Source of the DNA: Berkelbacteria bacterium GW2011_GWA2_35_9
Lineage (GTDB): Bacteria > Patescibacteriota > UBA1384 > GWA2-35-9
Direction of reading: 5' to 3'
Assembly (NCBI GenBank): GCA_000991185.1
Contig: LBRB01000005.1
Coordinates: forward strand, 1-45,810
DNA length: 45,810 nucleotides
Part shown: one piece after another, positions 4,972 through 33,184 of the stretch
Layout of the letters: every line of letters starts with the position of its first letter
Numbering within the stretch: the first letter of the stretch is position 1
Made by a program: the position numbers and the translations under genes
The notes under the pieces: model-generated
Told to the model about the DNA's origin: nothing
Seen by the model: only the letters and a program-made list of their open reading frames with translations
Database searches by the model: none

Positions 4972-6124
4972 AAACTTCAGTTAATATTTTTAAAAATGTT
5001 TCGATTTCAGTATTACTAGTTGCAAGTGCAATACTTATCCGCAATGTTTCTCTAATTGTCTTTTCGTCAACCTGCATATTTTCTAATACATAAGAAAGCT
5101 TTTGGCTTTTACTGGAACAAGCGCTTCCAATAGAAACTGAAATATTTTGCTTGTCTAAAAGAACAAATAGATTTTGGTGTTCAATATTTTTTAGAGCAAT
5201 TAAACTTATATGTGGCGATCTAGAGCTAGTCTTGAACAATATTTTTGCATCTGCAATTTTTTCAATTCCATTTTCTAATTTGGTTTTTTTGAACTGCAAA
5301 ATTTTTGTATTTTTAATTCTTTTTTGCACAATATTTTCTAAAACTTTAGTCATATAATATATTCCATAAACATTCACTGTTCCTGATCGCTTATCCATTT
5401 CTTGCCCACCCCCGCAAATTAATGGGAAAAATTTCTCCGTCTTAGAAATCATCACTCCAGTTCCTGGCAATGACCCAAATTTATGACCAGAAAAAGTGAC
5501 AATATCGATTAAATCTCTTTCTAAATTGATCGAATAATATTCAACTGCCTGAGTTATATCGGTATGTAAATATGGATATTTTGTATCGTTAGTCAATTTA
5601 TATTTTTTTAATTCCCGACCGATTTTTTTAATATCTTGCACAACACCAGTTTCGTTATTTACAAAACCAACCGAAATTAATACTGTTTCTGGCTTGATTA
5701 GTTCAATAATTTTTTCGGAAATAAAAAGTCCATCTTTTTCTGGATAAATAAATGTTACTTCCGCCCGCTTAAGATTGTTAAGAATTTTAGCGGTTTCAAT
5801 TATAGATGGGTGTTCAATCGAGCTAATAATTAAATGAGGCAATTTTTCACCGGTAGTATTATAATACAATGCATAATCCACCATACCTTTTAAAATTGTA
5901 TTATTGCCTTCGCTAGCCCCACTATTAAAATAGACCATCTCTGGTTCGACTGAAAATATATGGGCAATTTTTTCTCGACATTTTTCCAAAATTTTTGACA
6001 TTTCTCTGCCATGCGAGTGGAGCGAAGAACTATTGCCATAAGATTTTTTAATTAAACTAAAATACTCTTCGGCAATTTTTTCATCCGGTTTTTTTGTCCC
6101 TGCATTGTCTAAATAAATTTTCAT
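4949..6124 (-). CDS. iscS: Cysteine desulfurase (IscS/NifS group I)
   Basis: IYLDNA, IEHPS, VNNETG, SGHKF (PLP Lys), RSGT, GSACSS (catalytic Cys); operonic with mnmA. Confidence 0.9.
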   Translation of the reverse strand: MKIYLDNAGTKKPDEKIAEEYFSLIKKSYGNSSSLHSHGREMSKILEKCREKIAHIFSVEPEMVYFNSGASEGNNTILKGMVDYALYYNTTGEKLPHLIISSIEHPSIIETAKILNNLKRAEVTFIYPEKDGLFISEKIIELIKPETVLISVGFVNNETGVVQDIKKIGRELKKYKLTNDTKYPYLHTDITQAVEYYSINLERDLIDIVTFSGHKFGSLPGTGVMISKTEKFFPLICGGGQEMDKRSGTVNVYGIYYMTKVLENIVQKRIKNTKILQFKKTKLENGIEKIADAKILFKTSSRSPHISLIALKNIEHQNLFVLLDKQNISVSIGSACSSKSQKLSYVLENMQVDEKTIRETLRISIALATSNTEIETFLKILTEVYEDYQGR

Positions 6125-6376: not shown

Positions 6377-7448
6377 TAATCCACCCCATTTCTTTTGCGG
6401 TTCTTTTATTAATTAAAGAGGAGTAATTTGAATCTAGATCAACGCTTCCACTATTACACATTAAACTATAATGGTTACCTGTAATAGTTTCGTCAAATGT
6501 ACCATCCTGACATGGCTTATTAATATCTCCACCTATAATGTATTGGTCTGACGCTCCTAAAGAATGAGCCATTTCGTGAACTAAAGTACCAATATGTATC
6601 CCCCATTGATTAGGAAACAACCATGTTAAGCTTGATCTGACCGAACTAAGTGAATGAGAGACTAAAAGAGCGCCAATGTCATTTGGAGCATAAACAACTA
6701 CTCCAATTGCATCATAATCTCTTATGTCGATATTTTGTTTTTTAAAATTTTTAATCATAAAATTATCAGAAATTCCCCATTCTCCAATAGCTTCATCTCG
6801 ATTGCTAGCTGTTAGTTGAGGAAGCTTTTCATCAATCTTGATGGGTTCCTTAACGGTTAAATTTACAGTTAAATCTGCATTAAAACGCTTTGCTTGAGCT
6901 TCATAATAAGTTTTAATATACCTAAAAGTTGGATTAGAAATTTCTGAACCAGGAAGTTTTATTTTTTCTTGTTCACTATTTAAAGCTTCTATATATTTTT
7001 TAATAATTTCATTTTCTTGATCAACATCCTGAGGTATCAGTTGCACAATTAAAAAATTAAGGTCTCCGACTGCTTTTGTTAAAACATATGCACAAGTCGA
7101 ATGGTCAGTAATTTTCCTCCATGGTTTTTCATATTCCTGACAGTTGTTATTATCTTCAACTATTTTAGAGCCATTCTCGCCACTGTTTAAATATTTGTAT
7201 ATTCTATTGGTTGTATCTTCACTAAATTTTATTTCTGATGTCTCTTTAGTTATTAAATCTTCATTTTTTTGTAACGCTAGATTAATAATATCTTCATATT
7301 TATCGTGTATTGCTAGAACTTTACTAAGATATTCTTGATAATATTTATGATTATAACGATAGTATATAATATTAATAAATACTATTAGCAATGCCAAAAA
7401 CCAGAATAAACATATTTTTAAATCTTCTTTTTCAATCTTGATTGACAT
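6369..7448 (-). CDS. Membrane-anchored zinc metallopeptidase-like protein
   Basis: N-terminal TM helix; HEMAHSLGASD (HExxHxxGxxD) and a YSLM Met-turn-like motif. Confidence 0.75.
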   Translation of the reverse strand: MSIKIEKEDLKICLFWFLALLIVFINIIYYRYNHKYYQEYLSKVLAIHDKYEDIINLALQKNEDLITKETSEIKFSEDTTNRIYKYLNSGENGSKIVEDNNNCQEYEKPWRKITDHSTCAYVLTKAVGDLNFLIVQLIPQDVDQENEIIKKYIEALNSEQEKIKLPGSEISNPTFRYIKTYYEAQAKRFNADLTVNLTVKEPIKIDEKLPQLTASNRDEAIGEWGISDNFMIKNFKKQNIDIRDYDAIGVVVYAPNDIGALLVSHSLSSVRSSLTWLFPNQWGIHIGTLVHEMAHSLGASDQYIIGGDINKPCQDGTFDETITGNHYSLMCNSGSVDLDSNYSSLINKRTAKEMGWINE

Positions 7449-7456
7449 TTTTGTGT

Positions 7457-9082
7457 CTAATATCCTTCAGGATAGAAATAATTTTGGGTTAAAAATACAT
7501 CAACTATTTTTTTAGGAATAGATGAACCTGTGCTAGTAATGTAGTTTGCTGTTTCAGCTGTTTTTACAGAACTAAAGATAATATAATTTTCGTTGTTTAC
7601 AAAATAAAAATCTCCCGAAACAGTTCCAAGATTAGTAATGTTCTTTTCAACGTTTGTACTTTTTTCTTTTAAGAAAAGATCAGTCTTCCCATCTCGTGTT
7701 TCTTTAAATATTTCTATATTTCCGTCTTGAGTAAATATCCTCTCTCTTCTACTGTTAGCTGAGTCCGGTGTATAATTACTAATATTACCGGTTTCTATAT
7801 TATATTGTTTATACAGCGTTTTACTTTCTTCAGTGTCATAGTATGAATATAGCAAATACTGATTATCTTGCGAGTACTTTAAATCACTGACAGAGCTATC
7901 TGTAATTTTTTTTGTTGAATTGTTAGAAAATCTATATATATATGTTCCCTTTTCAGAATTAATATCTCCATAAATAGTATTTTGTATCCAACTTATTGTT
8001 TTTCCTGAAAAACTAAATGCAAAACTATTCAAACCTCCATTTTCTGCTAATTTAATTGTGCTCTCGCTCGTCACATTATAAATATATAATTTATTACTGA
8101 AATCATCTTGACCTTCTTTTCCGATCCACGCAATATATTTATTATCAGAAGACCACCTTACTCCATTTATGCTATATTGATTTCCAATTTTCTTCAAACT
8201 CTCTCCTGAACTTTTAATTAAATAGATATAATCACGAAAAGTTCCGTCTGCCTTTTTTTCTTGATCTCGTGTTGACATAAATACAACCCAGTTTTTATCA
8301 GGACTAGATTGAGCATTATAATCCTCACCCTCTCCAAGTCTTTTTACCAGCTGACTTAATTCCGTACCATCATAATTTGCTAAATAAACTCCTTTTTTCC
8401 CACCATCTCTATTTGAAACAAAATATAATTTTCCAGATGGAACTATTTCAATGACTTGATCTTTGTTGTCGGAAAAAATAATATTTTTTTCTATTTTATT
8501 ATATCCTTCTTTTTCTATAGTTACTTTATGGTCGTCAATTGCAATTTTTTCAAATAGAGCAATTCCCTTTTCGTCGGTTTCTCGTTCTTCCCCTAAAATT
8601 TTTATTTTTACACCTTTTATTGTTTGACCATTAATATAATTTTTAGTTGTAATAGAAACATTATCGGTAACAATTGTTTTTCTCAACTGTACCAGCTTGT
8701 TATTTACTCCTTTTTTCAATTTTATTTTTTCTTCGTAATTGTCAAATCCGCTTGTGGTAATTAATAGTTTGTACGTTCCTGCATGTAGATTATTAATAAT
8801 TAGCAACCCTTGATTGTCACTTATTTTATCAATCCCATTGATATTTCCTTTAGCACCAATAACGGTTTCGTTGTTTTCATCAGTTATTTTAACCTCGAGT
8901 TTGGCAGGAAATATTTTCAATAATAAAAAACTATAACTATCAGTCTGCCATATCAATACTAAAATAGCTATTAGCAATACAAACAACGAACTAATTCTAA
9001 GAAAATTTTTCGATATTACAAAATAACGGCTCTTCTCAGTATTTAATGTATTTCCTGAAACGGTTTCTTGATATTTTTTTAT
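7457..9082 (-). CDS. Exported protein with carboxypeptidase-regulatory/PEGA-like domains and a TolB-like beta-propeller; start uncertain (ATA 9082 or TTG 8986)
   Basis: FVSNRDGG...ANYDG, SPDKNWVVFMSTRD, WSSDNKYIAW repeats; the frame is open up to an SD-preceded ATA at 9082. Confidence 0.75.
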   Translation of the reverse strand: MKKYQETVSGNTLNTEKSRYFVISKNFLRISSLFVLLIAILVLIWQTDSYSFLLLKIFPAKLEVKITDENNETVIGAKGNINGIDKISDNQGLLIINNLHAGTYKLLITTSGFDNYEEKIKLKKGVNNKLVQLRKTIVTDNVSITTKNYINGQTIKGVKIKILGEERETDEKGIALFEKIAIDDHKVTIEKEGYNKIEKNIIFSDNKDQVIEIVPSGKLYFVSNRDGGKKGVYLANYDGTELSQLVKRLGEGEDYNAQSSPDKNWVVFMSTRDQEKKADGTFRDYIYLIKSSGESLKKIGNQYSINGVRWSSDNKYIAWIGKEGQDDFSNKLYIYNVTSESTIKLAENGGLNSFAFSFSGKTISWIQNTIYGDINSEKGTYIYRFSNNSTKKITDSSVSDLKYSQDNQYLLYSYYDTEESKTLYKQYNIETGNISNYTPDSANSRRERIFTQDGNIEIFKETRDGKTDLFLKEKSTNVEKNITNLGTVSGDFYFVNNENYIIFSSVKTAETANYITSTGSSIPKKIVDVFLTQNYFYPEGY

Positions 9083-9973: not shown

Positions 9974-11348
9974 TTACGATCTTGGAAATAGTGGTTTGGC
10001 TTTTCCACTTTTAAGCTGTCTAAGAGTTTTCTCTGAAGTATCAGGTATAAACGGTGCTAAATCGTATGCAATCAGCTCCACTTTACGCAAAAGTAATTTA
10101 ATTGTTTTTTTATCACCCGTTTCTACAATAATCGGGGTTCTCAGGATTAAATTTAATAGTAAATTTTTTTGCTAAAACGACAGTCCGTTGCACCAAATTT
10201 CCAAGCTCGTTAGCTAATTCACTTTCATACCTGCGATCTAATTCTTCAAAACTAAAGTCGCCGTCGTTACCAAACGGAAAACTTGAAATGAGTAAATAGC
10301 GAGTCGCATCCAAACCATACTTATTTATTAATTCTTGAATAGATATTATATTTCCCAAACTTTTCGACATCTTTTGCTTATTGATCGTAAAAAACCCGTG
10401 CGCAAAAAGCTCTTTTGGTAATTCTAGCTCGGCTGATAATAATAATCCAAGCCAGGTAACTCCATGAAAACGCAAAATATCTTTACCAATCAACTGCAAA
10501 TCCGGACTCCAAAATTCCTTATGTTTCGGGTTTCGGATTTCGGATTTCGGGTTTTGAATTACAGACAGGTAATTCAAAAGTGCATCTACCCAAACATAAA
10601 TTGTTTGCTCTTTGTCCCACGGCACCGGAATTCCCCACTCTACTTTGCTTCTTGAAATCGCCGTATCTTCTAGTTTGTTTTGTAAAAATCCCAAAACTTC
10701 GTTTTTGCGTTCAAGTGGTCTAATTTTAACTTCATCCGATTCAATTAATTGAATAATTTTATCTTGATATTGTGATAACTTGAAAAAATAGACTGCTTCT
10801 TTAACATTTTCAACCGGTTTTTTGTGAATTGGACAGTTGCCATTTTCTAAATCTTCAGCTTTTTTATACTCTTCGCAACCAACACAATACAAACCCTCGT
10901 ATATTCCCTGATATATATCACCTTTACTGTAAAGTTTAGTCAAAAATTCCTGAACGAATCTTTCATGGTTTTCATCCGTCGTTCTAACAAAATAATCGTA
11001 ATTAATATTTAAAAGCTTCCACGCATTTTTAAACTCATGCGATATTTTGTCTGTATAATTTTGGATTTTTTCCGACGATCCAATTGTATCGGATGTCGGA
11101 ATCCCGACCGAAGCGTCGGGAAAATTGTGTTTTTTATCTTTTATTTTTAATCTTTGCTCTCCAAAATCCAGCGCCGAGCGCTGTATTTTGGCGCCGTGTT
11201 CATCCGTTCCCGTCAAAAAGAAAACTTTTTCACCCCAACTTTTGTGCGCACGACAAAGAATATCAGCCGCTATGGTTGTATAAGCATGACCAATATGCGG
11301 ACTGGCATTAACATAGTAAATCGGGGTTGTAATATAAAACTTGTTCAT
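9974..11348 (-). CDS. metG: Methionyl-tRNA synthetase; frameshifted with an internal deletion near 10128 as assembled
   Basis: HIGH, TGTDEHG, CxxC knuckle, YVWVDAL, GKDI, KMSKS. The C-terminal VETGDKK...LAPFIPDTSEK...PLFPRS* lies in another frame (10126-9974). Confidence 0.92.
10523..10557. repeat. In-frame heptamer array in metG
   Basis: gtttcgg gtttcgg atttcgg atttcgg gttttga; encodes QNPKSEIRNPK. Confidence 0.88.
11070..11158. repeat. In-frame GC double hairpin plus heptamer array in metG
   Basis: TTCCGAC..GTCGGAA and TCCCGAC-CGAAGC-GTCGGGA (11070-11121), then 4 cttttat-like units (11131-11158); encodes QRLKIKDKKHNFPDASVGIPTSDTIGSSE. Confidence 0.88.
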
Positions 11349-11444
11349 AATATATAGCTATATTACCCTAATCCTTGACATTTTGCAATTTACAGTTCGA
11401 AGTTCGAAAGGAGCTTGAAAATACGGAAAGTCACTCAAACAGCT

Positions 11445-11469
11445 ACCGTGCACTGCGAGGGTGCACGGT
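11445..11469. repeat. GC-rich hairpin just after the NRAMP stop (REP-like or terminator)
   Basis: ACCGTGCAC-7 nt-GTGCACGGT; no clear U-tract. Confidence 0.6.
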
Positions 11470-11475
11470 TGGTTC

Positions 11476-12834
11476 TTATAGATATATAAACATTGCTATG
11501 ACTGCAATCAACATAATCGCAAATGTTAACCAACCTAATACTTTTGAGATTGGCTTGTTAGTATATTTTCCCATAACATCTTTTCTCGAACTAATTAAAA
11601 CGATCATCGCAATCAACGGCACCGCCACAATGCCGTTTAATACTGCCGAATAAAACAACCCCTTGATCGGGTCAATGCCGATAAAATTGATCCCTAAACC
11701 ACACAATGTCGAAATAATAATTATGCCATAAAACCCACTCGCTTCTTTAAACTTATGAAACAAACCCTCTTTCCAACCAAATGCCTCGCTCAAAGCGTAG
11801 GCTGCCGATCCAGCTAATATTGGGATTCCCAATAACCCTGCTGCAATAATTCCAATCATAAAAAACAGACCTGCCATATCGCCGACTAACGGCTGTAAAG
11901 CTAAGGCGGCATCTTGAGCTGATGAAATATTATTAATTCCATTTTTATTCAAAACTGTTGCACAAGTTACTACAATCGAAAAAGCAATTAATTGCGATAG
12001 AACCATCCCTAAAACTGTATCAACCCGCATCTTTTTTAACATTTTAGGATGAACATATTTACTACTAGCATCATCGTTAAGTGCTTTTTCTTCAACTTCT
12101 TCAGACGCTTGCCAGAAAAAAAGATAAGGTGAGATTGTTGTCCCCAAAAAAGCTACTGTCGTCATAATATATTCACCATTAAATTGCCAATTGCTATAGG
12201 TAAATAATGACTTGCCTATGTCTGTCCAGTTTTGAGGCACAGCAAAAAGAGTTAACAAATAAGTTAATAAAAATATTGTCAACCATTTCAAAATATTGGC
12301 ATAGATACGATAGGATATAAAAACTTCAAGAAAAATAATAATTAGTGTAGTGATGATTGCCCAAAAACTGATTTTACCACCCAATATTAAACTTAATGTG
12401 GCTGACATAGCTGAAATATCGGCTCCAATATTGAAAATATTAGCGCCAACTAAAACGAAAACAACTAAAAAGAGAAGATACTTTGAATAATGTTTCTTAA
12501 TATTTCCAGCCAAACCATGACCAGTTACAATTCCAATTCGAGCACAAATTTCTTGAATTGCGATCATCAAAGGAATCTGAATTGGCATCAACCAGTTCAA
12601 TCCCAAACCATACTTTGCTCCCGTAATCGAGTAAGTTCCAATTCCGCTTGGATCATCATCTGAAAAACCAGTAATCACTCCTGGTCCAACGACTTTTGAT
12701 GCTTTTTTTACATTGTCTGAAATTTTTTTCTGATCTTTTTTAATTTCATCTGAAATTTCCCCCAAATGGACGCTCGAAGCTTTTTCAAACTCTTCAATAA
12801 AATCTTCAGTTTTTTCAATTGTTTTCTTTTTCAA
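11476..12834 (-). CDS. NRAMP-family divalent metal transporter
   Basis: DDDPSGIGTYS..GA.YG, GTTISPYLFFWQ, ~11 TM helices. Confidence 0.88.
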   Translation of the reverse strand: MKKKTIEKTEDFIEEFEKASSVHLGEISDEIKKDQKKISDNVKKASKVVGPGVITGFSDDDPSGIGTYSITGAKYGLGLNWLMPIQIPLMIAIQEICARIGIVTGHGLAGNIKKHYSKYLLFLVVFVLVGANIFNIGADISAMSATLSLILGGKISFWAIITTLIIIFLEVFISYRIYANILKWLTIFLLTYLLTLFAVPQNWTDIGKSLFTYSNWQFNGEYIMTTVAFLGTTISPYLFFWQASEEVEEKALNDDASSKYVHPKMLKKMRVDTVLGMVLSQLIAFSIVVTCATVLNKNGINNISSAQDAALALQPLVGDMAGLFFMIGIIAAGLLGIPILAGSAAYALSEAFGWKEGLFHKFKEASGFYGIIIISTLCGLGINFIGIDPIKGLFYSAVLNGIVAVPLIAMIVLISSRKDVMGKYTNKPISKVLGWLTFAIMLIAVIAMFIYL

Positions 12835-13628
12835 TTGTCCAAATTATTTTTTAGAATCGTATACAAATTTTGCCAATCTAAAACCGTTAGATCTTCAGCT
12901 CGATACCCCTCTTTGATCTGACTTTTCTCCATTATATCAAATAAATCCGTTTTATCGAAATTCAAAATCGGAAAGAGGGAATTGATCAGTTTTCGTCTTT
13001 TTTGGGAAAAACCAGCTTTAATTAAACGCATCATTCCCACCTCAAGTGGAGTAATATTATTTTTTTTGCTTAATTTAATGACCGCCGAATCAACTTGAGG
13101 AATTGGTTGAAAATTTTCTTTTGAAACCTCAAATAATATTTCTATTGCGTAATAATACTGCAAAAAAACGGACAAAATCCCACGATTTTTTTCACCCGCT
13201 TTTGAAGCTAATCTTTCAGCCACTTCTTTTTGAACCATCAAAACCGCCATTGTTGGTTTTTCAATTTCACCGGTTACAAAATATTTATTAATTATTGGCG
13301 AAGTAACTGCATAGGGTAAGTTGGAAATTAGCTTATAATCATTTTTAGTAAATCTTGCTAGATCAGTTGAATTAAATTCTAATGCATCTCGATTGACCAC
13401 TTTAATATTTTTGCGATTTTTATAAACTTTTTTAAGTTTTTCCGCTATCCCAAAATCTTTTTCCAAGGCTAAAATGTCAATCGGTTTTTCAATCAATAAA
13501 TCCGTCAAAGCGCCTCTACCCGGACCAATCTCAATTATCTTATCACCAGTTTGCGATTCAATTGCTTCAACAATTTGTTGAGCAATAATTTGGTTAGTTA
13601 AAAAATTTTGACTGAGTTTTGTTTTCAT
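12831..13628 (-). CDS. rsmA: 16S rRNA dimethyladenosine transferase
   Basis: SQNFL, EIGPGRG, NLPY, MVQKEVAER, PQVDS, FSQKRRK, RAEDL. Confidence 0.95.
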   Translation of the reverse strand: MKTKLSQNFLTNQIIAQQIVEAIESQTGDKIIEIGPGRGALTDLLIEKPIDILALEKDFGIAEKLKKVYKNRKNIKVVNRDALEFNSTDLARFTKNDYKLISNLPYAVTSPIINKYFVTGEIEKPTMAVLMVQKEVAERLASKAGEKNRGILSVFLQYYYAIEILFEVSKENFQPIPQVDSAVIKLSKKNNITPLEVGMMRLIKAGFSQKRRKLINSLFPILNFDKTDLFDIMEKSQIKEGYRAEDLTVLDWQNLYTILKNNLDN

Positions 13629-13644
13629 AACTCAAATTATACTT

Positions 13645-14203
13645 TGGAAAACAAAGGAGTACAAGGGAGAACAAATAAATTAATATGGTAAATTCCCTAT
13701 TATTTTTCTTTTAATATTTTGTTTTCGTTTGAATATCAGATCTTCTTTCTGATCTCCGGAATTGATATATTTATTTTCCAAACCTTCAATTTGCCTCAAA
13801 AGCATCATTTTCTCACCCATTAACAATTTGATGGTTTTTGATATTTCATCTAATTCTTGCCCCTTTGTTTTCCTTAGTCTTCCTCTATATTCCCTTTCGA
13901 GCTCAAAATAATCCTCTAATAATTCTATTAGTGACGCTAAACTAAATTTCAAAAACTCAATGTAATTTTTCGTTTGGTTACGGCTCCAACCCTCTGAAAT
14001 ATTGGCAGTAATAGACCGTCCGCATAATTGCATTTGTTCTATTAACCGACGATCTCTATAAGAATCTAAATAACTCCGACAAAATTCCTTAGTCAATACT
14101 TCGATTTCTTTTCCTTGTTGAAAAGTCCTCAATGCTTTATACCCCAATGGATTGAATGTGTTACTTTGCCGCATTGCCCTCCTTTGTACTCCATTGTTTT
14201 CCA
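13645..14203. mobile_element. Putative cassette: four-helix-bundle gene enclosed by 30-bp inverted arms made of 10-mer units
   Basis: 13645-13674 TGGAAAACAAAGGAGTACAAGGGAGAACAA versus the reverse complement of 14174-14203, TGGAAAACAATGGAGTACAAAGGAGGGCAA (26/30 identical). Confidence 0.65.
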
Positions 14204-14204
14204 T
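13680..14204 (-). CDS. Four-helix-bundle protein (23S rRNA IVS-protein/Avd-like family)
   Basis: L..QM....RSI.ANI.EGW.R....YI.FL..S..SL.EL signature. The real start may be the second Met, since the first 10 codons are the repeat arm. Confidence 0.85.
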   Translation of the reverse strand: MENNGVQRRAMRQSNTFNPLGYKALRTFQQGKEIEVLTKEFCRSYLDSYRDRRLIEQMQLCGRSITANISEGWSRNQTKNYIEFLKFSLASLIELLEDYFELEREYRGRLRKTKGQELDEISKTIKLLMGEKMMLLRQIEGLENKYINSGDQKEDLIFKRKQNIKRKIIGNLPY

Positions 14205-14209
14205 CTTAT

Positions 14210-15151
14210 TTATGGTTTAGTAAGCTTAACTTGTATTGTTCCAGCACCAAGCGGAGCTAGTTGGGAAAAAGCGTCGGGTGAAAGATCGATAATTGCATTA
14301 GACTGAATTCCGGGACCGACAATTTTAACCATCACCTGTTTACCATTTGAAATGTTAGTCACTAAAACCATAGTTCCACGAGGCAATGTGTTATGTGCCG
14401 CACTCATAGCTGGAGCACTATACCAAGTTGCTTTTCCAACTCCGTATACCACCTCTTTTGTACCGTAATAAATTATTTCCTCAACCGCCTCTTTGGTTGT
14501 CTCAGTTTTAATTAGTTTACGGCTTTTTTCAATTCCGTTTTCCCGAGTTACTTCATAAGTTAATTTTTTCTCGCCATTTTGTCCTTTTTGAGTGACTTTT
14601 TCTTCGCCTTTCCACATTTCCGGATCCTCTTTTCTGATAGTTGTGTAAGCAATTTTTTCTTTTTCATCAATATTTGTTTTTTCAACTCTAATTATCTCTA
14701 TCTCGAGACCAGCATCAATTTCATGTGCTAAAACCGGGTCGATTTTGTCTAACCCCCCAAGCTCAATCGATTTTTCCTTTAAAAATTCATCAACGTTTTT
14801 TGCAAAAGTTCGATGTTCTCTTGAATATTTTGCGTCAAGAACGGTAACATTTAAAGATCGTTTAATCGAAATTTTTGCGCCTAACCCCAATCCTAAATCA
14901 GGAAAAATCGTAATTTTATCTTGTGGATAAATTGTTAATTCATTTTTCTTAACAAAATCTTTAAAATTATTAATTGATGAATCGGCAAAGTAATTTTCGA
15001 TTTTGATCCGTGAATCTTCTTTATCTTGCTCAGCTTTGGCTACACTGACACCTAAAACTTGTCCTTCAGTATTACTCTCTTCCGGGACAATATTGATAAC
15101 AAATACAAATAACACCGGTAATAAAACTAATGCCAATAATTTTTTCAACAT
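14210..15151 (-). CDS. YabE/RpfB-like cell-wall protein: DUF348 + G5 + RlpA-like DPBB domain
   Basis: Signal/TM segment; G5 (QKGQNGEK.L.Y.V..ENG.E...YGTK); ATWY..AAH.TLP.GT.V.V.N...IIDLS..AF. Confidence 0.85.
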   Translation of the reverse strand: MLKKLLALVLLPVLFVFVINIVPEESNTEGQVLGVSVAKAEQDKEDSRIKIENYFADSSINNFKDFVKKNELTIYPQDKITIFPDLGLGLGAKISIKRSLNVTVLDAKYSREHRTFAKNVDEFLKEKSIELGGLDKIDPVLAHEIDAGLEIEIIRVEKTNIDEKEKIAYTTIRKEDPEMWKGEEKVTQKGQNGEKKLTYEVTRENGIEKSRKLIKTETTKEAVEEIIYYGTKEVVYGVGKATWYSAPAMSAAHNTLPRGTMVLVTNISNGKQVMVKIVGPGIQSNAIIDLSPDAFSQLAPLGAGTIQVKLTKP

Positions 15152-15170: not shown

Positions 15171-18100
15171 CTAGACAATAAATTCAACCGCTTCGCCGTC
15201 AAGATGTGAAATTTCATCAATAAATCGAGAACGGCTTTGATATTGAAACGATCCGAAAATAAAACGATTTCTGGAGTAGATTAAATAGAGACGGTTTTTG
15301 GCTCTTGTCATACCGACATAACACAACCGTCGCTCTTCTTCTAACTCACTTTCATCCTGTAAACTTCGACCATGAGGCAATAGCCCTTCTTCAAGACCGA
15401 CGACAAAAACCGTCTCGAATTCCAATCCCTTGGCTGAATGTAAAGTCATTAAAGTAACTGCTTGATCGTCGCTATTAATTTTGTCTGTGTCCTGGACCAA
15501 CGCCACTTTTTCTAAAAATCCATCAATTGTTTGGTATTGGCTAGCAACAGTTTTTAACTCTAAAATATTTTCCAAACGACTTTCATTTTCAATCGTTCCA
15601 TCGTCGAGCCATTTTTTATAACCGGTTTTATACATAATTAAATCAATTATTTCCGCCGGTGTTTTAAACTCGATTTTTTCTCGCATACCATCAATCATCT
15701 TCAAAAAATCTTGCACCTTGATTGGTATTTTTTCATTTTGAATTTTAAATTGTGATTTTGAATTTTGCATTTTGAATTTTGCATTCGAAAAACTTTCATA
15801 AGTTTTTCGTCCTATTCCTCTTGTCGGTGTATTGATTATTCTCTCCATTGACACGCTATCATTTGGGTTAACTAAATATCTTAAATAAGCAATTATATCT
15901 TTAACTTCTTTCCGTTCATAAAATCTAATTCCACCAATTAAACGGTACAAAATATTGGCTTTTATTAATCCTTCTTCCAAACTTCGGGATTGAGCATTAG
16001 TACGGTATAAAATTACAATCTCGTTCAGTTTTTGTTGCAAGGCTTTTATCTCACGAATTATAAAATCGATCTCTTCATTTTCGTCTTCAACTTCAAGCAC
16101 CGTAACTGGTAAGTTAGATTTTATTTCAGTCCACAATTTTTTTTCACTGCGAACTCGATTATTTTTTATCAATGCTTGAGCGCCGGTTAAAATATTTTCT
16201 GTCGAGCGATAATTTTGTTCAAGCTTAAAAGTTTTAGCATTCGGATAATCCCGCTCAAAATTCAAAATATTGCGAAAATTTGCGCCTCGCCACGAGTAAA
16301 TTGAATTATGCACTACCACTCCATTCGCTACATAATTATGTAACTTATCTATTTCTAAATCATAAACAAAACCTTGATAATCGATCATTTTAATATCAAC
16401 AATTTCGTCTTCAACAATATTATTATTTTCAATAATCGCAATTTTCATTGATTTTCGAAGATGAGACGCCGGTGTAAAATGCATTCTTTTGCCCTCAACC
16501 AAACAAGCAGTTTTAACTATATTAAAACCTCCTCTGATGCTCGATACTATTTTATTTAATATAATTTCGATTTCACCATAGTCAAGCCTCGTTATTTCCG
16601 TTCGCCAGTCGGATGATTTTCCTTTTCTCGTCATAATTCCTAATTTTTCAATATGTGATTTTAATTCAATATCGCTAGAATTGATTGATAAACGACTCAT
16701 CCCCCAAGGATTGAGAATGCTCTTTCTGCGATCATCAAACAATGCCAACCTTATATTTATCCTCTTGGTGCTATTTCGAATAGTAGCTTGTGGTGTCCAG
16801 TGTGAATATTCTTCAAATAAATATTGATCTGCCATTAATATCTTGGCTTTTTCAACAGTATCGATATTTTTATAAAGGTCGTCTATTTGTTTCTGATCCA
16901 TTATTGTACTTCTTCCTGCTGTAAAAAATATTACTGTCGGTATTCCATATTTAAACGCAAAAAATGATTCCCAATAAATTGCTTCCGCTGAACCATCACA
17001 AACCCTCAATATCCACATTTTATCTGCCTTTTCTTGATTGCCTCTGACTAGTAATCCATTTTGTGGTTTATGTTTTGTTATTCTTGTCCCTTTTGCAATA
17101 CCGACCCTAAATCCTTTATCCTTCCTAAACATTAAATAGACATAAAATATATTTGAATTAATCCCTAATCTTGAAAATACAATATGATTTGGAGTTAATA
17201 ATAATATTTTATTTTTTTTAGTTTTTACCCTAATTAATTTTCCTTTATATGAATATTTTTTTATTTTTTCAATTCCCTTAAAGACTGAACTACCATTGCC
17301 GGAAGCAACTCGAATATTATCTTTCAGTGTAATATTGCAAATATTCTTTAATCCTTTTTGAGTTATTAATTTTGTTAATGGATGGAAGCATTGAAAATCG
17401 TCTCCGACGACGCAGATGTTTTTTGTCTTTTGGCTTAGTAATTTTATTAGCTGATATTGCGGTTCGTTAGTATCTTGATACTCATCAACCATAATGTATT
17501 GAAACTGGTTTTGATAACGATCCAATATTTCCTGAGTGGTTTTAAAAAGCTTAACCACATTGATTAATAAATCATCAAAATCCATGGCGTTATTTTCAAC
17601 CAATCTTTTTTCATAGAGCGTATAAATTTCTGAAATAATTCGAGTAAAATAATCATTTGCAATTTTTTTATATCCAGCACTATCGATCAGTTCAGATTTT
17701 GCGGATGAAATTAATGCCGAGACTAAACCAGGATTAAATTTTTTTGGATCGTATTTGAGATCTTTGACAATTCTTTTAATTAACTGCTTTTGATCATCGC
17801 TATCATAAATTGAGAAATTATTGGTATATTTTAACAACGATTGATCGACTTCTCGACGCAAAATCTTAGCACAAATCGAATGAAAAGTCCCAGCCCATGG
17901 CAATTTATTATTTTGATATTTGGAATTTGAATTTTGTTTAATATTTGAAATTTGAATTTTGGAATTTGAGATGATTAAAAGATTTTCGATTCTTTTAATC
18001 ATCTCTTGCGCTGCTTTATTGGTAAAAGTGACCGCTAAAATCCGAAATGGGCTGACTTTTTTTTCTAAAATCAGATAGGCGAGTCGATGAGTCAAAGTTT

Positions 18101-18206
18101 TTGTTTTCCCACTTCCAGCACCAGCAAAAATCAAAACCGGTCCTTCAGTCTGAAGCACCGCATTTGCTTGTTCTTTATTAAGCCCGTCTAGTATTGAAAT
18201 CGACAT
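15171..18206 (-). CDS. pcrA: PcrA/UvrD SF1 helicase containing an intein and two in-frame repeat insertions
   Basis: AGAGSGKT, TFTNKAA, DEYQD, GDDFQ|SIYSWRGA, LEQNYRS, TLHSAKGLEF, YVGMTRA. Confidence 0.93.
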   Translation of the reverse strand: MSISILDGLNKEQANAVLQTEGPVLIFAGAGSGKTKTLTHRLAYLILEKKVSPFRILAVTFTNKAAQEMIKRIENLLIISNSKIQISNIKQNSNSKYQNNKLPWAGTFHSICAKILRREVDQSLLKYTNNFSIYDSDDQKQLIKRIVKDLKYDPKKFNPGLVSALISSAKSELIDSAGYKKIANDYFTRIISEIYTLYEKRLVENNAMDFDDLLINVVKLFKTTQEILDRYQNQFQYIMVDEYQDTNEPQYQLIKLLSQKTKNICVVGDDFQCFHPLTKLITQKGLKNICNITLKDNIRVASGNGSSVFKGIEKIKKYSYKGKLIRVKTKKNKILLLTPNHIVFSRLGINSNIFYVYLMFRKDKGFRVGIAKGTRITKHKPQNGLLVRGNQEKADKMWILRVCDGSAEAIYWESFFAFKYGIPTVIFFTAGRSTIMDQKQIDDLYKNIDTVEKAKILMADQYLFEEYSHWTPQATIRNSTKRINIRLALFDDRRKSILNPWGMSRLSINSSDIELKSHIEKLGIMTRKGKSSDWRTEITRLDYGEIEIILNKIVSSIRGGFNIVKTACLVEGKRMHFTPASHLRKSMKIAIIENNNIVEDEIVDIKMIDYQGFVYDLEIDKLHNYVANGVVVHNSIYSWRGANFRNILNFERDYPNAKTFKLEQNYRSTENILTGAQALIKNNRVRSEKKLWTEIKSNLPVTVLEVEDENEEIDFIIREIKALQQKLNEIVILYRTNAQSRSLEEGLIKANILYRLIGGIRFYERKEVKDIIAYLRYLVNPNDSVSMERIINTPTRGIGRKTYESFSNAKFKMQNSKSQFKIQNEKIPIKVQDFLKMIDGMREKIEFKTPAEIIDLIMYKTGYKKWLDDGTIENESRLENILELKTVASQYQTIDGFLEKVALVQDTDKINSDDQAVTLMTLHSAKGLEFETVFVVGLEEGLLPHGRSLQDESELEEERRLCYVGMTRAKNRLYLIYSRNRFIFGSFQYQSRSRFIDEISHLDGEAVEFIV
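15734..15787. repeat. In-frame heptamer array in pcrA (54 nt)
   Basis: cattttg aatttta aattgt gattttg aattttg cattttg aattttg cattcg; encodes NAKFKMQNSKSQFKIQN. Confidence 0.88.
16305..17390 (-). mobile_element. Intein (362 aa, C273-N634) in helicase motif III
   Basis: Starts Q|CFHPLT, has block B LTPNHIV, ends VYDLEI...HNYVANGVVVHN|S; removing it restores GDDFQSIYSWRGA. Confidence 0.95.
17909..17968. repeat. In-frame heptamer array in pcrA (4 units + 4 nt + 4 units = 60 nt)
   Basis: tattttg atatttg gaatttg aattttg ttta atatttg aaatttg aattttg gaatttg; encodes SNSKIQISNIKQNSNSKYQN. Confidence 0.9.
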
Positions 18207-31891: not shown

Positions 31892-31996
31892 AATTAAGAA
31901 TTAAGATCTCATAATTCATAATCAAATTTAGAGTTTATAAACTATAATTTTTAATTTTGGATTAGGTTCTTAATTCTGAGATATTAATTTTGAATT
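31892..31996. repeat. Gene-junction arm/anti-arm heptamer repeat supplying the last codons of the 31970 gene
   Basis: aattaagaattaagatctcataatt versus aattctgagatattaatt; 46-bp identity to 22302-22347. Confidence 0.88.
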
Positions 31997-33184
31997 ATTG
32001 TCTGGTTTACTAACAATCCCCAATGTCAAAAATATCCAAAAGATTATCACCAAATCGTTTTTCCAGTATGGTGTGTCAACTAATCCAATAATGATTATTG
32101 TCAACAAACCAGCTAAAATCGGATATTTTTGATTTTTATAACTCTTAATAAATGCCAAAATGATTAAGTAAATAAAAACACACAGCATTAATAACCCGCC
32201 CTGGACCCAAAATGACAAGAAAAGATTGTGGGGCATTAAGGCTCGAGGAGAAATAAATTCAGGATAATTGCCTTGATCAGCGGTATAATTAGTAAAATAA
32301 TTTTGATAATTTCCAAGCCCAACTCCCAAGAAAAAGTTTTTGGTATTTTCTGTTTCAATCTTTAAAGTAGTTTTCCAAATTTCATACCGAATATTGTTAG
32401 AATTTGATACCCTGCCACTACCTTCTTTTGCCGATAAATTAACCCGTGCTAAGTAGGTAGCAATTAATAGTAATAGTGCTAAACCAATGCTCATTCCAAT
32501 TTTGTAAACTTTTGAAATCTTATTTTTATCAGCTATATATTGCCATAAAACTATGAAAACGGCGATTATATCAGCTAAAATTGCTCCCCTGGAACCAGTT
32601 AAATAAACTCCAATAATAATTAAAATAGAGGCAATTAAATAATAAATTTTATATCTTTTTGAACAGACAAATCTAAGGGTTGAAAGCGCAAAAGCGGGTG
32701 CTAAATACATCGCTAAATAATTGGCGCTGGCATTGGCTTCGAATGAAAATATGCCAACAATTCTGCCATCGTTAGTTGTAATGTCGAGACATTTTTGACT
32801 AATTGCCAATATTGCCATCAAGGTGGATGAAACAATTAGGCTATCACAAATAATTGTTGGACGTACTTTAGAAACTCTTGGTTGGGTTCGCCAAATTAAC
32901 CATGCAAAAATAATCGGATCAATAATAAATGCCTTCAACTGACCAAGGGCAATGTTTTTATCTGGTGCAATTAAAGTTGAAATAGTACCAGCCAAAATGA
33001 TTAGCCCCAAACTAAGATAAATTTTAATATTTTTTGGTAAAATTAACTTTTTATCTAGAACGATTTGGATTAGAAAAGCTAACCAAATCAAAACTTCTAA
33101 CAAAGTTGTTGGAATATTAAGTACTTCAAAACGCACCATATAGACCGGAAGAAAGATAATGATTAAAGAAAGTAAATAAAGCAT
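31970..33184 (-). CDS. O-antigen ligase/Wzy-like protein
   Basis: N.LA.YL, TGSRGA, R..IW, GVGLGNY, PHNLFL. Confidence 0.85.
   Translation of the reverse strand: MLYLLSLIIIFLPVYMVRFEVLNIPTTLLEVLIWLAFLIQIVLDKKLILPKNIKIYLSLGLIILAGTISTLIAPDKNIALGQLKAFIIDPIIFAWLIWRTQPRVSKVRPTIICDSLIVSSTLMAILAISQKCLDITTNDGRIVGIFSFEANASANYLAMYLAPAFALSTLRFVCSKRYKIYYLIASILIIIGVYLTGSRGAILADIIAVFIVLWQYIADKNKISKVYKIGMSIGLALLLLIATYLARVNLSAKEGSGRVSNSNNIRYEIWKTTLKIETENTKNFFLGVGLGNYQNYFTNYTADQGNYPEFISPRALMPHNLFLSFWVQGGLLMLCVFIYLIILAFIKSYKNQKYPILAGLLTIIIIGLVDTPYWKNDLVIIFWIFLTLGIVSKPDNNSKLISQN

Follow-up and report, generated by a model that had tools for sequence, protein, structure and literature searches.

A four-helix-bundle gene between inverted decamer arms at a G5-rsmA junction of Berkelbacteria: a candidate intervening-sequence-like cassette outside rRNA

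What is a single small gene doing between two protein genes of an operon, closed in on both sides by inverted repeats and accompanied by nothing else? The arrangement occurs in Berkelbacteria bacterium GW2011_GWA2_35_9, whose CPR-type genome of 619 kb (~0.6 Mb) has 34% GC and is 85.6% complete. A first-pass annotation of the window (here, the whole 45,810-nt stretch of DNA that was analysed) had read the locus as a cassette resembling the intervening sequences (IVSs) of 23S rRNA, with arms that form a stem. The gene was assigned to PF05635/TIGR02436, a very large family for which we know of no function outside diversity-generating retroelements (DGRs).

Layout of the cassette and its predicted stem

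Along the window's minus strand, the genes follow one another in the order UvrD (15171-18206, minus strand, intein-bearing), a G5/DUF348/DPBB gene, an ORF of 174 codons, rsmA and an Nramp gene. ORF calling and profile searches identified the upstream host gene as a G5/DUF348/DPBB (RlpA-like) gene of 313 aa (14210-15151, minus strand) and the downstream host gene as rsmA/ksgA, a 16S rRNA dimethyltransferase gene of 265 aa (12831-13628, minus strand). The two are 581 nt apart, a distance made up of a 6-nt spacer from the G5 stop codon to the 5′ arm (14204-14209), a unit of 559 nt measured arm to arm, and a 16-nt spacer from the 3′ arm to the rsmA start codon (13629-13644), which carries TATAAT at 13641-13636. 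The unit consists of an arm, an ORF and an arm, and lies between G5 and rsmA, not inside the 23S rRNA gene (helix 25 or 45).

Inverted arms had been noted at 13645-13674 and 14174-14203, identical at 26 of 30 positions, and a repeat search recovered them as 30 nt of 87% complementarity, 499 nt apart. Each arm had been described as three 10-mer units, and TRF called the left one accordingly (13646-13675, period 10, 3.0 copies). Read on the sense strand (minus), the 5′ arm (14174-14203) is built of three purine-rich 10-nt units, GGAAAACAAT GGAGTACAAA GGAGGGCAAT, with 10 G and 3 C, and the 3′ arm (13645-13674) of three pyrimidine-rich ones, TTGTTCTCCC TTGTACTCC TTTGTTTTCC, beginning 6 nt past the stop codon. 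The 3′ arm is anti-Shine-Dalgarno-like: it reads CUCCC / CUCCUUU, the complement of the Shine-Dalgarno (SD) sequence. Alignment also bore out that two of the four mismatches become G:U on the transcribed minus strand, so that 28 of 30 positions can pair in RNA. When the RNA of 13625-14225 was folded, as had been suggested, a long-range 30-bp stem appeared in both the MFE and the centroid structure, at -136.8 kcal/mol against -109.9 +/- 7.7 for 20 shuffles (z -3.50), none of which folded as well. Folded alone, the single arms were unstructured (0 and -2.3 kcal/mol). The ORF itself holds a purine-rich decamer array (13842-13883, minus strand), which encodes the helix 3-4 loop RLRKTKGQE and offers the 3′ arm an alternative pairing partner (26/37).

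The arms are private to this locus. With up to three mismatches the arm sequence had one occurrence in the window and none in 100 shuffles, with up to six substitutions its only matches in the genome were the two arms themselves, and the 10-nt arm unit is absent from the rest of the genome outside the cassette. We then scored flank-to-flank complementarity for all 557 genome ORFs of at least 90 codons. The cassette ORF ranked fifth, scoring 24.0 where the median was 10 and the 99th percentile 21.2; ranks 1, 2 and 4 are IS200-like Y1 transposase genes between palindromes. The cassette shows no target-site duplication, its flanks being AAGA and AAGT.

The family assignment made at first pass held in profile searches, with 47.2 bits for PF05635 (cut-off 33.8) and 47.5 bits for TIGR02436 (cut-off 24). 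The longest ORF, 13680-14204 (174 codons, 174 aa), overlaps the 5′ arm. Because seven relatives begin, with MRNPLGYK, at the aligned position of Met11, the real start is most likely Met11 (ATG at 14174-14172), which would give a gene at 13680-14174 on the minus strand and a product of 164 aa; genome searches matched from residue 17 on. With this start the 5′ arm would lie wholly upstream of the coding region, its last base being the A of the likely start codon, and AGGAGG at 14183-14178, within the arm, would stand 3 nt from the proposed ATG. An AlphaFold model built from an 8-sequence alignment (pLDDT 81.3) has helices at 16-35, 42-63, 68-97 and 106-138 and a fifth, C-terminal helix at 143-160 of lower confidence. 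Its PDB matches supported the Avd-like fold that had been claimed, with target-normalised TM scores of 0.73-0.77 for 2gsc (XCC0516), 0.80 for 2rld (BT_0352) and 0.77 for 4dwl (Avd); XCC0516 and BT_0352 stood on top and Avd lower in the list.

The 6-nt spacer upstream of the 5′ arm is too short for a promoter, and a promoter scan of 13400-14500 found no excess of sites (3 against 3.0 expected by chance). A TTGTAC-N17-TATAAT arrangement across the 3′ arm, spotted by eye, fell below the threshold of that scan. No terminator was detected in 13400-14500. Rfam returned no family for the five PF05635 loci of the genome, including the cassette locus, and PADLOC gave none apart from one weak match, probably due to chance (E 0.0043). 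The genome encodes RNase III (134.6 bits) and gave no match to the reverse transcriptase (RT) profile PF00078 (RVT_1) at its 85.6% completeness. The first-pass annotation had stated that the window contains neither RT nor transposase. As to RT, the statement could be extended to the genome; three IS200-like Y1 transposase genes, flanked by palindromes, lie outside the window.

Gain, loss and replacement of PF05635 cassettes

The linkage of yabE/rpfB (G5) to rsmA that the first-pass annotation had mentioned is indeed common: of the 11 relatives looked at, 8 have G5 upstream of rsmA. The same annotation had proposed a search for an empty site, and one was found in a same-genus genome (G001), where G5 and rsmA are 52 nt apart with no PF05635 gene between them. 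G001 keeps the UvrD-G5-rsmA-Nramp order, and its G5 and rsmA proteins are 82% and 86% identical to those described here. The filled site in one genome and the 52-nt spacer in the other bear out the description of the 559-nt unit as a discrete cassette, one that comes and goes as such. In 6 of the 8 relatives having G5 upstream of rsmA no ORF intervenes, so the empty state is the common one. A search for sequence runs over 13300-14600 turned up no RNA run. Logan contigs from groundwater metagenomes matched parts of the filled site (13637-13806 and 14189-14478 among others) with zero differences; no joint skipping the cassette was seen among them, their cover leaving gaps in parts of the stretch.

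The junction holds other things elsewhere. In a further relative (G011) it is occupied by a canonical PF05635 gene (87 bits), unrelated to the one described here and enclosed by inverted heptamer arms of its own, the G5-rsmA spacers of G001 and G009 contain solo heptamer arrays, and that of G005 an inverted heptamer pair without a gene. The G5-rsmA junction has evidently been visited more than once.

PF05635 matches occur at five places in the Berkelbacteria genome, four of them full-length genes and one, C32, a fragment. Inverted arms, which the first-pass annotation had proposed to look for at all four-helix-bundle (4HB) genes of the genome, flank two of the remaining three full-length genes. 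These are the short-type copies C23 and C4, which have 33-nt inverted heptamer arms and rank 11 and 9 of 557. The third is the C7 copy (182 aa, conserved in G001), which has no inverted arms around the gene and has an upstream 9-nt array complementary to a stretch within its own ORF. The arms of the C4 copy are members of a dispersed family of repeats, which lie beside other genes too. In G001 the C23 site lacks the cassette, and the C4 site, between flanking genes 71-85% identical in the two genomes, is taken by another PF05635 cassette. That one scores 41 bits, encodes a protein of 37% identity, has inverted heptamer arms that are its own and does not match at the DNA level.

A search of genome contigs with the single protein found no relative of the cassette protein; a profile search from a 6-sequence alignment yielded 13 loci, 48-57% identical, in MAGs titled Berkelbacteria, Saccharibacteria, Woesebacteria and Patescibacteria. 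The flanks of these genes contain the same ~10-nt unit as the window, mostly in direct orientation. Counts of its core, CCNTNGT or the complement, come to 35 in 3,360 nt of subfamily flanks and 71 in 58,717 nt of background (10.4 vs 1.2 per kb). The core turns up in distant lineages, before as well as after the gene, and mostly in the pyrimidine form (26 vs 9). In all 14 genes the helix 3-4 loop (GGxRKTKDNxGA) is encoded by a purine-type decamer array whose unit is that of the window's 5′ arm. Two relatives with direct arrays folded no better than shuffles (z -0.72 and +0.21), and of the 14 subfamily loci none but that of the window forms a clean hairpin. In the subfamily, then, the repeat unit is conserved and the inverted arrangement is not.

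Inverted arms in the family and short-period arrays in the genomes

Is the enclosure of the gene by inverted arms a property of the family or of this one locus? PF05635 was matched in 158 of 301 phylum genomes, up to 15 times in a genome of about 1 Mb; one genome flagged as unpublished (G188) entered into this tally and into nothing else. We surveyed +/-3 kb around the first-listed PF05635 match of 60 other phylum genomes; a match was left out if it had internal stops or if a contig began less than 1.5 kb away. Among the 429 ORFs called, an HMM built from the targets recognised 65 family members, 64 of them scorable, and 312 neighbours served as control. The arm score was the best ungapped helix between start flank and stop flank, counting Watson-Crick pairs only. 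Median scores were 16 for the PF05635 genes and 8 for the neighbours. A score of at least 12 was reached by 49 of 64 PF05635 genes and 14 of 312 neighbours, and one of at least 16 by 34 and 8 (Fisher p about 4e-23). Direct repeats between the flanks were not enriched (at least 12 in 5/64 PF05635 genes vs 22/312 neighbours). The first-pass annotation had counted a lack of inverted arms in other family members among the things that would refute its proposal. Most PF05635 genes (49/64) are armed; the 13 closest relatives of the cassette gene are not, their scores being 6.5-13.5.

In the 49 armed genes, the arms are tandem arrays with a median length of 29 nt; a period of 7 fits best in 37, one of 8 in six and one of 9 in two. 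The 5′ arm ends a median of 6 nt before the start codon, the 3′ arm sets in a median of 5 nt past the stop, and the upstream arm is G-rich (G>C) in 41. The cassette described here fits this layout, with a G-rich arm upstream that ends at the start codon and a 3′ arm 6 nt after the stop, and deviates in its arm period of 10 nt. The gap between cassette ORF and neighbour has a median of 38 nt, which leaves no room for a promoter, so the cassettes must ride on host transcripts. Where the neighbours are co-oriented, 48 of 51 cassettes point the same way as they do (controls, 72/84). On the sense strand the arms of the 49 genes contain 38 G:T and 40 A:C mismatches, hence no excess of G:U wobble and no sign of selection for RNA pairing in particular. 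We also considered whether each repeat unit carries a stop codon, so that an arm would block three frames; only 23/49 5′ arms and 11/49 3′ arms do so.

Duplication of a whole cassette is seen in G048. Its two copies lie 2.6 kb apart; their identity of about 92% extends exactly to the outer ends of the arms, beyond which the flanks are unrelated. These copies show no target-site duplication and, compared by eye, no clear compensatory pattern; two same-genus genomes (G075 and G122) have almost no DNA alignable with the G048 locus. Among 20 further paralogues from three genomes, 14 score at least 12 for inverted arms, the arm units differ from cassette to cassette and there is almost no mutual DNA similarity. 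Since the arms vary in this way, it is complementarity and periodicity that are kept, not a fixed end sequence.

Short-period arrays are also abundant away from the genes. TRF (at least 3 copies) found 95 arrays of period 7 in the Berkelbacteria genome, compared with 6, 5, 10 and 8 for periods 6, 8, 9 and 10, and 65 of the 95 lie outside ORFs, though ORFs make up 81.5% of the DNA. The 93 arrays with a consensus of exactly 7 nt comprise 48 different units, counted as exact canonical units, against four full-length PF05635 genes; one protein per repeat unit is thereby excluded as a general rule. We compared 20 genomes without a PF05635 match at 1e-8 and 20 genomes with 7-15 matches, taking from each the initial 20 kb of contig 1, or less in the case of a shorter contig. 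The PF05635-rich group had 75 period-7 arrays in 335 kb and the negative group 1 in 385 kb, with a p-value of 1e-5 that is overstated since related genomes are not independent. Periods 6, 10, 11 and 12 were similar in the two groups; periods 8 and 9 were somewhat higher in the PF05635-rich group (13 vs 3 and 11 vs 0). All but three of the 75 arrays (72) lie more than 200 nt from any PF05635 family member. The difference is not accounted for by GC content: those 11 genomes of the negative group with GC <=0.41 hold 1 array in all.

What the arms may do, and comparison with known systems

We give roughly even chances to the reading in which the locus is an IVS-type gene cassette outside rRNA with a role at the RNA level, placed between co-transcribed G5 and rsmA. 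For want of promoter space, the cassette would be transcribed with the host operon. Once made, the 3′ arm would pair with the 5′ arm into the 30-bp stem of 28 pairs and bury the cassette's own AGGAGG and start codon, and translation of the 4HB protein would be limited to a short co-transcriptional window. The stem that would hide the ribosome-binding site (RBS) is probably also an RNase III target, a substrate of the type cut in the Coxiella IVS experiments, and once cut it would set the insert free from the host mRNA. The Coxiella precedent, the predicted burial of the RBS, the fixed polarity of the arms relative to the gene, the shared direction of cassettes and host genes and the missing space for a promoter would all point this way. 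Against a role in RNA stands the wobble count of the 49 family arms (38 vs 40), and so do the unarmed flanks of the closest relatives, with two folds no better than shuffles. Cutting a polycistronic mRNA, moreover, brings the host no obvious benefit, and AGGAGG is only 3 nt from the proposed ATG.

Several of these observations would be accounted for if the arms acted in DNA instead, as the ends of a small mobile or recombining element (through a single-strand hairpin or paired arrays), a possibility that we hold to be on the unlikely side. The 4HB protein, or a host function working with it, would then also spread and maintain short-period arrays, and RNA pairing would be a by-product. Such an element would suit the presence and absence of the cassette between congeners, the arm-to-arm duplication in G048 and the different PF05635 cassettes that the C4 site holds here and in G001, between flanks 71-85% identical and with proteins 37% identical. 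The varied fillings of the G5-rsmA junction (G011 with an unrelated cassette, G001 and G009 with solo arrays, G005 with an inverted pair that encloses no gene), the abundance of period-7 arrays (75/335 kb vs 1/385 kb, 72/75 not adjoining a PF05635 gene) and the missing wobble excess fit it too. However, the cassette carries no nuclease, transposase or RT, and no RT was found in the genome; neither the cassette nor the G048 copies has a target-site duplication; the arms differ between paralogous cassettes of one genome, which means that there is no common transposase end sequence; and the fixed G-rich/C-rich polarity (41/49) would be unexpected for symmetrical DNA ends. Quite improbable, in our estimate, is that the repeat units serve as binding sites of the encoded protein, for operator-like autoregulation or a nucleoprotein complex, with their inversion in the window incidental. 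Avd, a relative of the PF05635 protein, binds nucleic acids, which would favour such sites. The density of the CCNTNGT core in subfamily flanks of distant lineages (10.4 vs 1.2 per kb, mostly in direct orientation) and the pentameric rings known among relatives (excerpts of PMC4990558 on the Xanthomonas protein) point in the same direction, but the canonical family is enriched only for the inverted arrangement (49/64 vs 5/64 direct), one protein per unit fails in view of 93 period-7 arrays with 48 units and four full-length genes, and the window's arm unit is nowhere else in the genome outside the cassette.

Two further explanations seem to us hardly credible. Chance, or generic low-complexity intergenic repeat DNA unrelated to the gene, might produce inverted repeats in an AT-rich genome (34% GC) with many short tandem arrays (95 of period 7), and the C4-copy arms do come from a dispersed family that flanks other genes as well; against this, a second arm copy arose in 0/100 shuffles, the arms are unique in the genome, the ORF ranks 5/557, and the arms are enriched specifically at PF05635 genes (p about 4e-23 at score 16). 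An origin of the gene as the leftover Avd accessory gene of a DGR is scarcely compatible with a genome that lacks an RVT_1 match (at 85.6% completeness), with a repeat search of 13300-14600 that gave no template/variable repeat (TR/VR) pair, or with housekeeping genes flanking the gene directly, and has in its favour the Avd-like fold (4dwl, target-normalised TM 0.77).

A more far-reaching proposal, speculative and rather unlikely as we see it, is that 4HB proteins drive a selfish element of a new kind, one without a nuclease, transposase or RT of its own, in which a ring measuring a fixed step promotes the birth and spread of short-period DNA arrays. If it were true, armed cassettes would be the autonomous form, and hundreds of solo arrays, gene-less pairs and ORF-less rRNA IVSs its non-autonomous offspring, which would explain why period-7 arrays of many unrelated sequences occur almost only in genomes that carry PF05635. 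The 75 vs 1 co-occurrence turns the origin of heptamer repeats and the function of PF05635 into one testable question. The window supplies a clean case, with a filled site and an empty site in a congener, a predicted stem over the cassette's own RBS and period-7 arrays about tenfold over other periods, and its 10-nt variant, set beside the direct-array relatives, is a natural contrast between a role of pairing and a role of the unit sequence.

In the literature that we searched, rRNA IVSs, the excess of heptamer repeats and the PF05635 family are treated separately; the window joins all three. We found no publication describing repeat-armed PF05635 cassettes outside rRNA within the reach of the search, most subscription journals lying beyond it, and titles and abstracts of papers on PF05635, TIGR02436 or S23 proteins have nothing on flanking repeats. 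PF05635 ORFs inside rRNA insertions of CPR bacteria appear in excerpts of PMC11270868. The excerpts of Warrier et al. (2016; PMC4990558) describe a 23S IVS of Coxiella burnetii (helix 45) that carries an S23p ORF of PF05635 type, has upstream of the start an SD-like AGAAGA followed by three tandem heptamers of strain-variable copy number, and is excised by RNase III with a cut that removes the SD-like region. The cassette resembles the 23S rRNA IVSs, as sketched there for C. burnetii and known also from Leptospira, in its single PF05635-type ORF looped out by a stem of flanking inverted sequence, in the tandem repeats just upstream of the start codon with an SD-like region inside the stem, and in its sporadic occurrence among relatives without a mobility gene. 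It differs in sitting between protein genes of an operon, in units of 10 nt, not 7, and in encoding a longer subtype of the protein (164 aa, including a fifth helix and a loop encoded by repeats); excision by RNase III, which in these IVSs goes without religation, is reported for Coxiella and is a prediction for the cassette.

With Avd of DGRs (4dwl) the product shares the four-helix-bundle fold; unlike Avd, it belongs to the PF05635 sequence family and is encoded alone in a repeat-armed unit, with no RT or TR/VR. Integron cassettes are likewise promoterless single-gene cassettes inserted in a transcribed array. Their attC site is one imperfect palindrome at the cassette 3′ end, and an integrase is required; the ORF described here has an arm on either side, and cassettes of its kind are spread over operons. 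MITEs and REP/RAYT elements are also small and bounded by inverted repeats, and the genome does hold three palindrome-flanked IS200-like Y1 genes, but the arms described here are tandem arrays private to their cassette, with no conserved terminal repeat or hairpin and no target duplication seen, and the cargo of armed cassettes is always the same gene family. The closest parallel to the arrays themselves comes from Rehm et al. (2015; PMC4692102), whose main text reports over-represented heptamer arrays in bacteria, with convergent pairs in Xanthomonas and arrays in Nostoc, and draws no link from heptamer repeats to a gene family ('S23' and 'helix bundle' have 0 occurrences in it). Both sets are intergenic period-7 arrays that sometimes form inverted pairs; compared with the repeats of that main text, those described here enclose a gene and co-occur with PF05635 at the level of the genome.

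The G5-rsmA junction in other genomes

The junction between the G5 gene and rsmA is a site used repeatedly, as seen from its contents in four other genomes. In G011 it holds an unrelated PF05635 cassette (locus L035, 821-1339), and in G005 an inverted heptamer pair without a gene (L037, 1405-1473). Solo heptamer arrays are found there in G009 (L028) and in the same-genus genome G001 (L027, 1449-1500).

Period-7 arrays between and within genes

Tandem repeat analysis of the whole genome (G000) showed 95 arrays of period 7, versus 5-10 for each neighbouring period. These arrays comprise 48 different units and 65 of the 95 lie outside ORFs; examples are found on contigs C1 (10270-10311), C14 (496-550) and C35 (4675-4704). 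Two are located within the reading frame of uvrD (window 15171-18206, minus strand), at 15735-15785 and 17910-17967, each with about 7.5 copies of the unit ATTTTGA, and therefore tandem arrays enter coding DNA too in this genome. Both are translated as low-complexity peptide stretches of UvrD, which also contains an intein (Intein_splicing, 56.5 bits). In another genome, G097, 23 period-7 arrays were observed within 20 kb of contig C1 (L175), where intergenic stretches (5537-5789, 7448-7871 and 11084-11736) are made up of up to seven arrays in succession, the unit being different in each.

Other PF05635 genes, dispersed repeats and transposases of the genome

A pair of genes encoding a nucleotidyltransferase (37 bits) and a HEPN protein (62 bits) adjoins the C23 PF05635 cassette on its upstream side (L001, 2084-2778), and this entire block is absent from the matching site of G001. 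The C7 PF05635-like gene (182 aa) adjoins tsaD. A 9-nt array upstream of it (L004, 1380-1410) is 77% complementary to a stretch within its ORF (1750-1780, codons about 110-120), as if a former 3′ arm had turned into coding sequence. Arrays of a single dispersed unit family, TCTGAGATCTTAATTCTTAATT and its complement, bracket, in inverted orientation, several unrelated genes (C4, 12749-16743; window 31970-33184), including that of a 404-aa membrane protein in the window.

Three genes for IS200-like Y1 transposases (217-221 aa; Y1_Tnp, 30-36 bits) are present on C21 (693-1346), C9 (20430-21086) and C6 (36704-37369). Each lies between palindromic repeats of 39-47 nt, an arrangement that resembles REP/RAYT systems.
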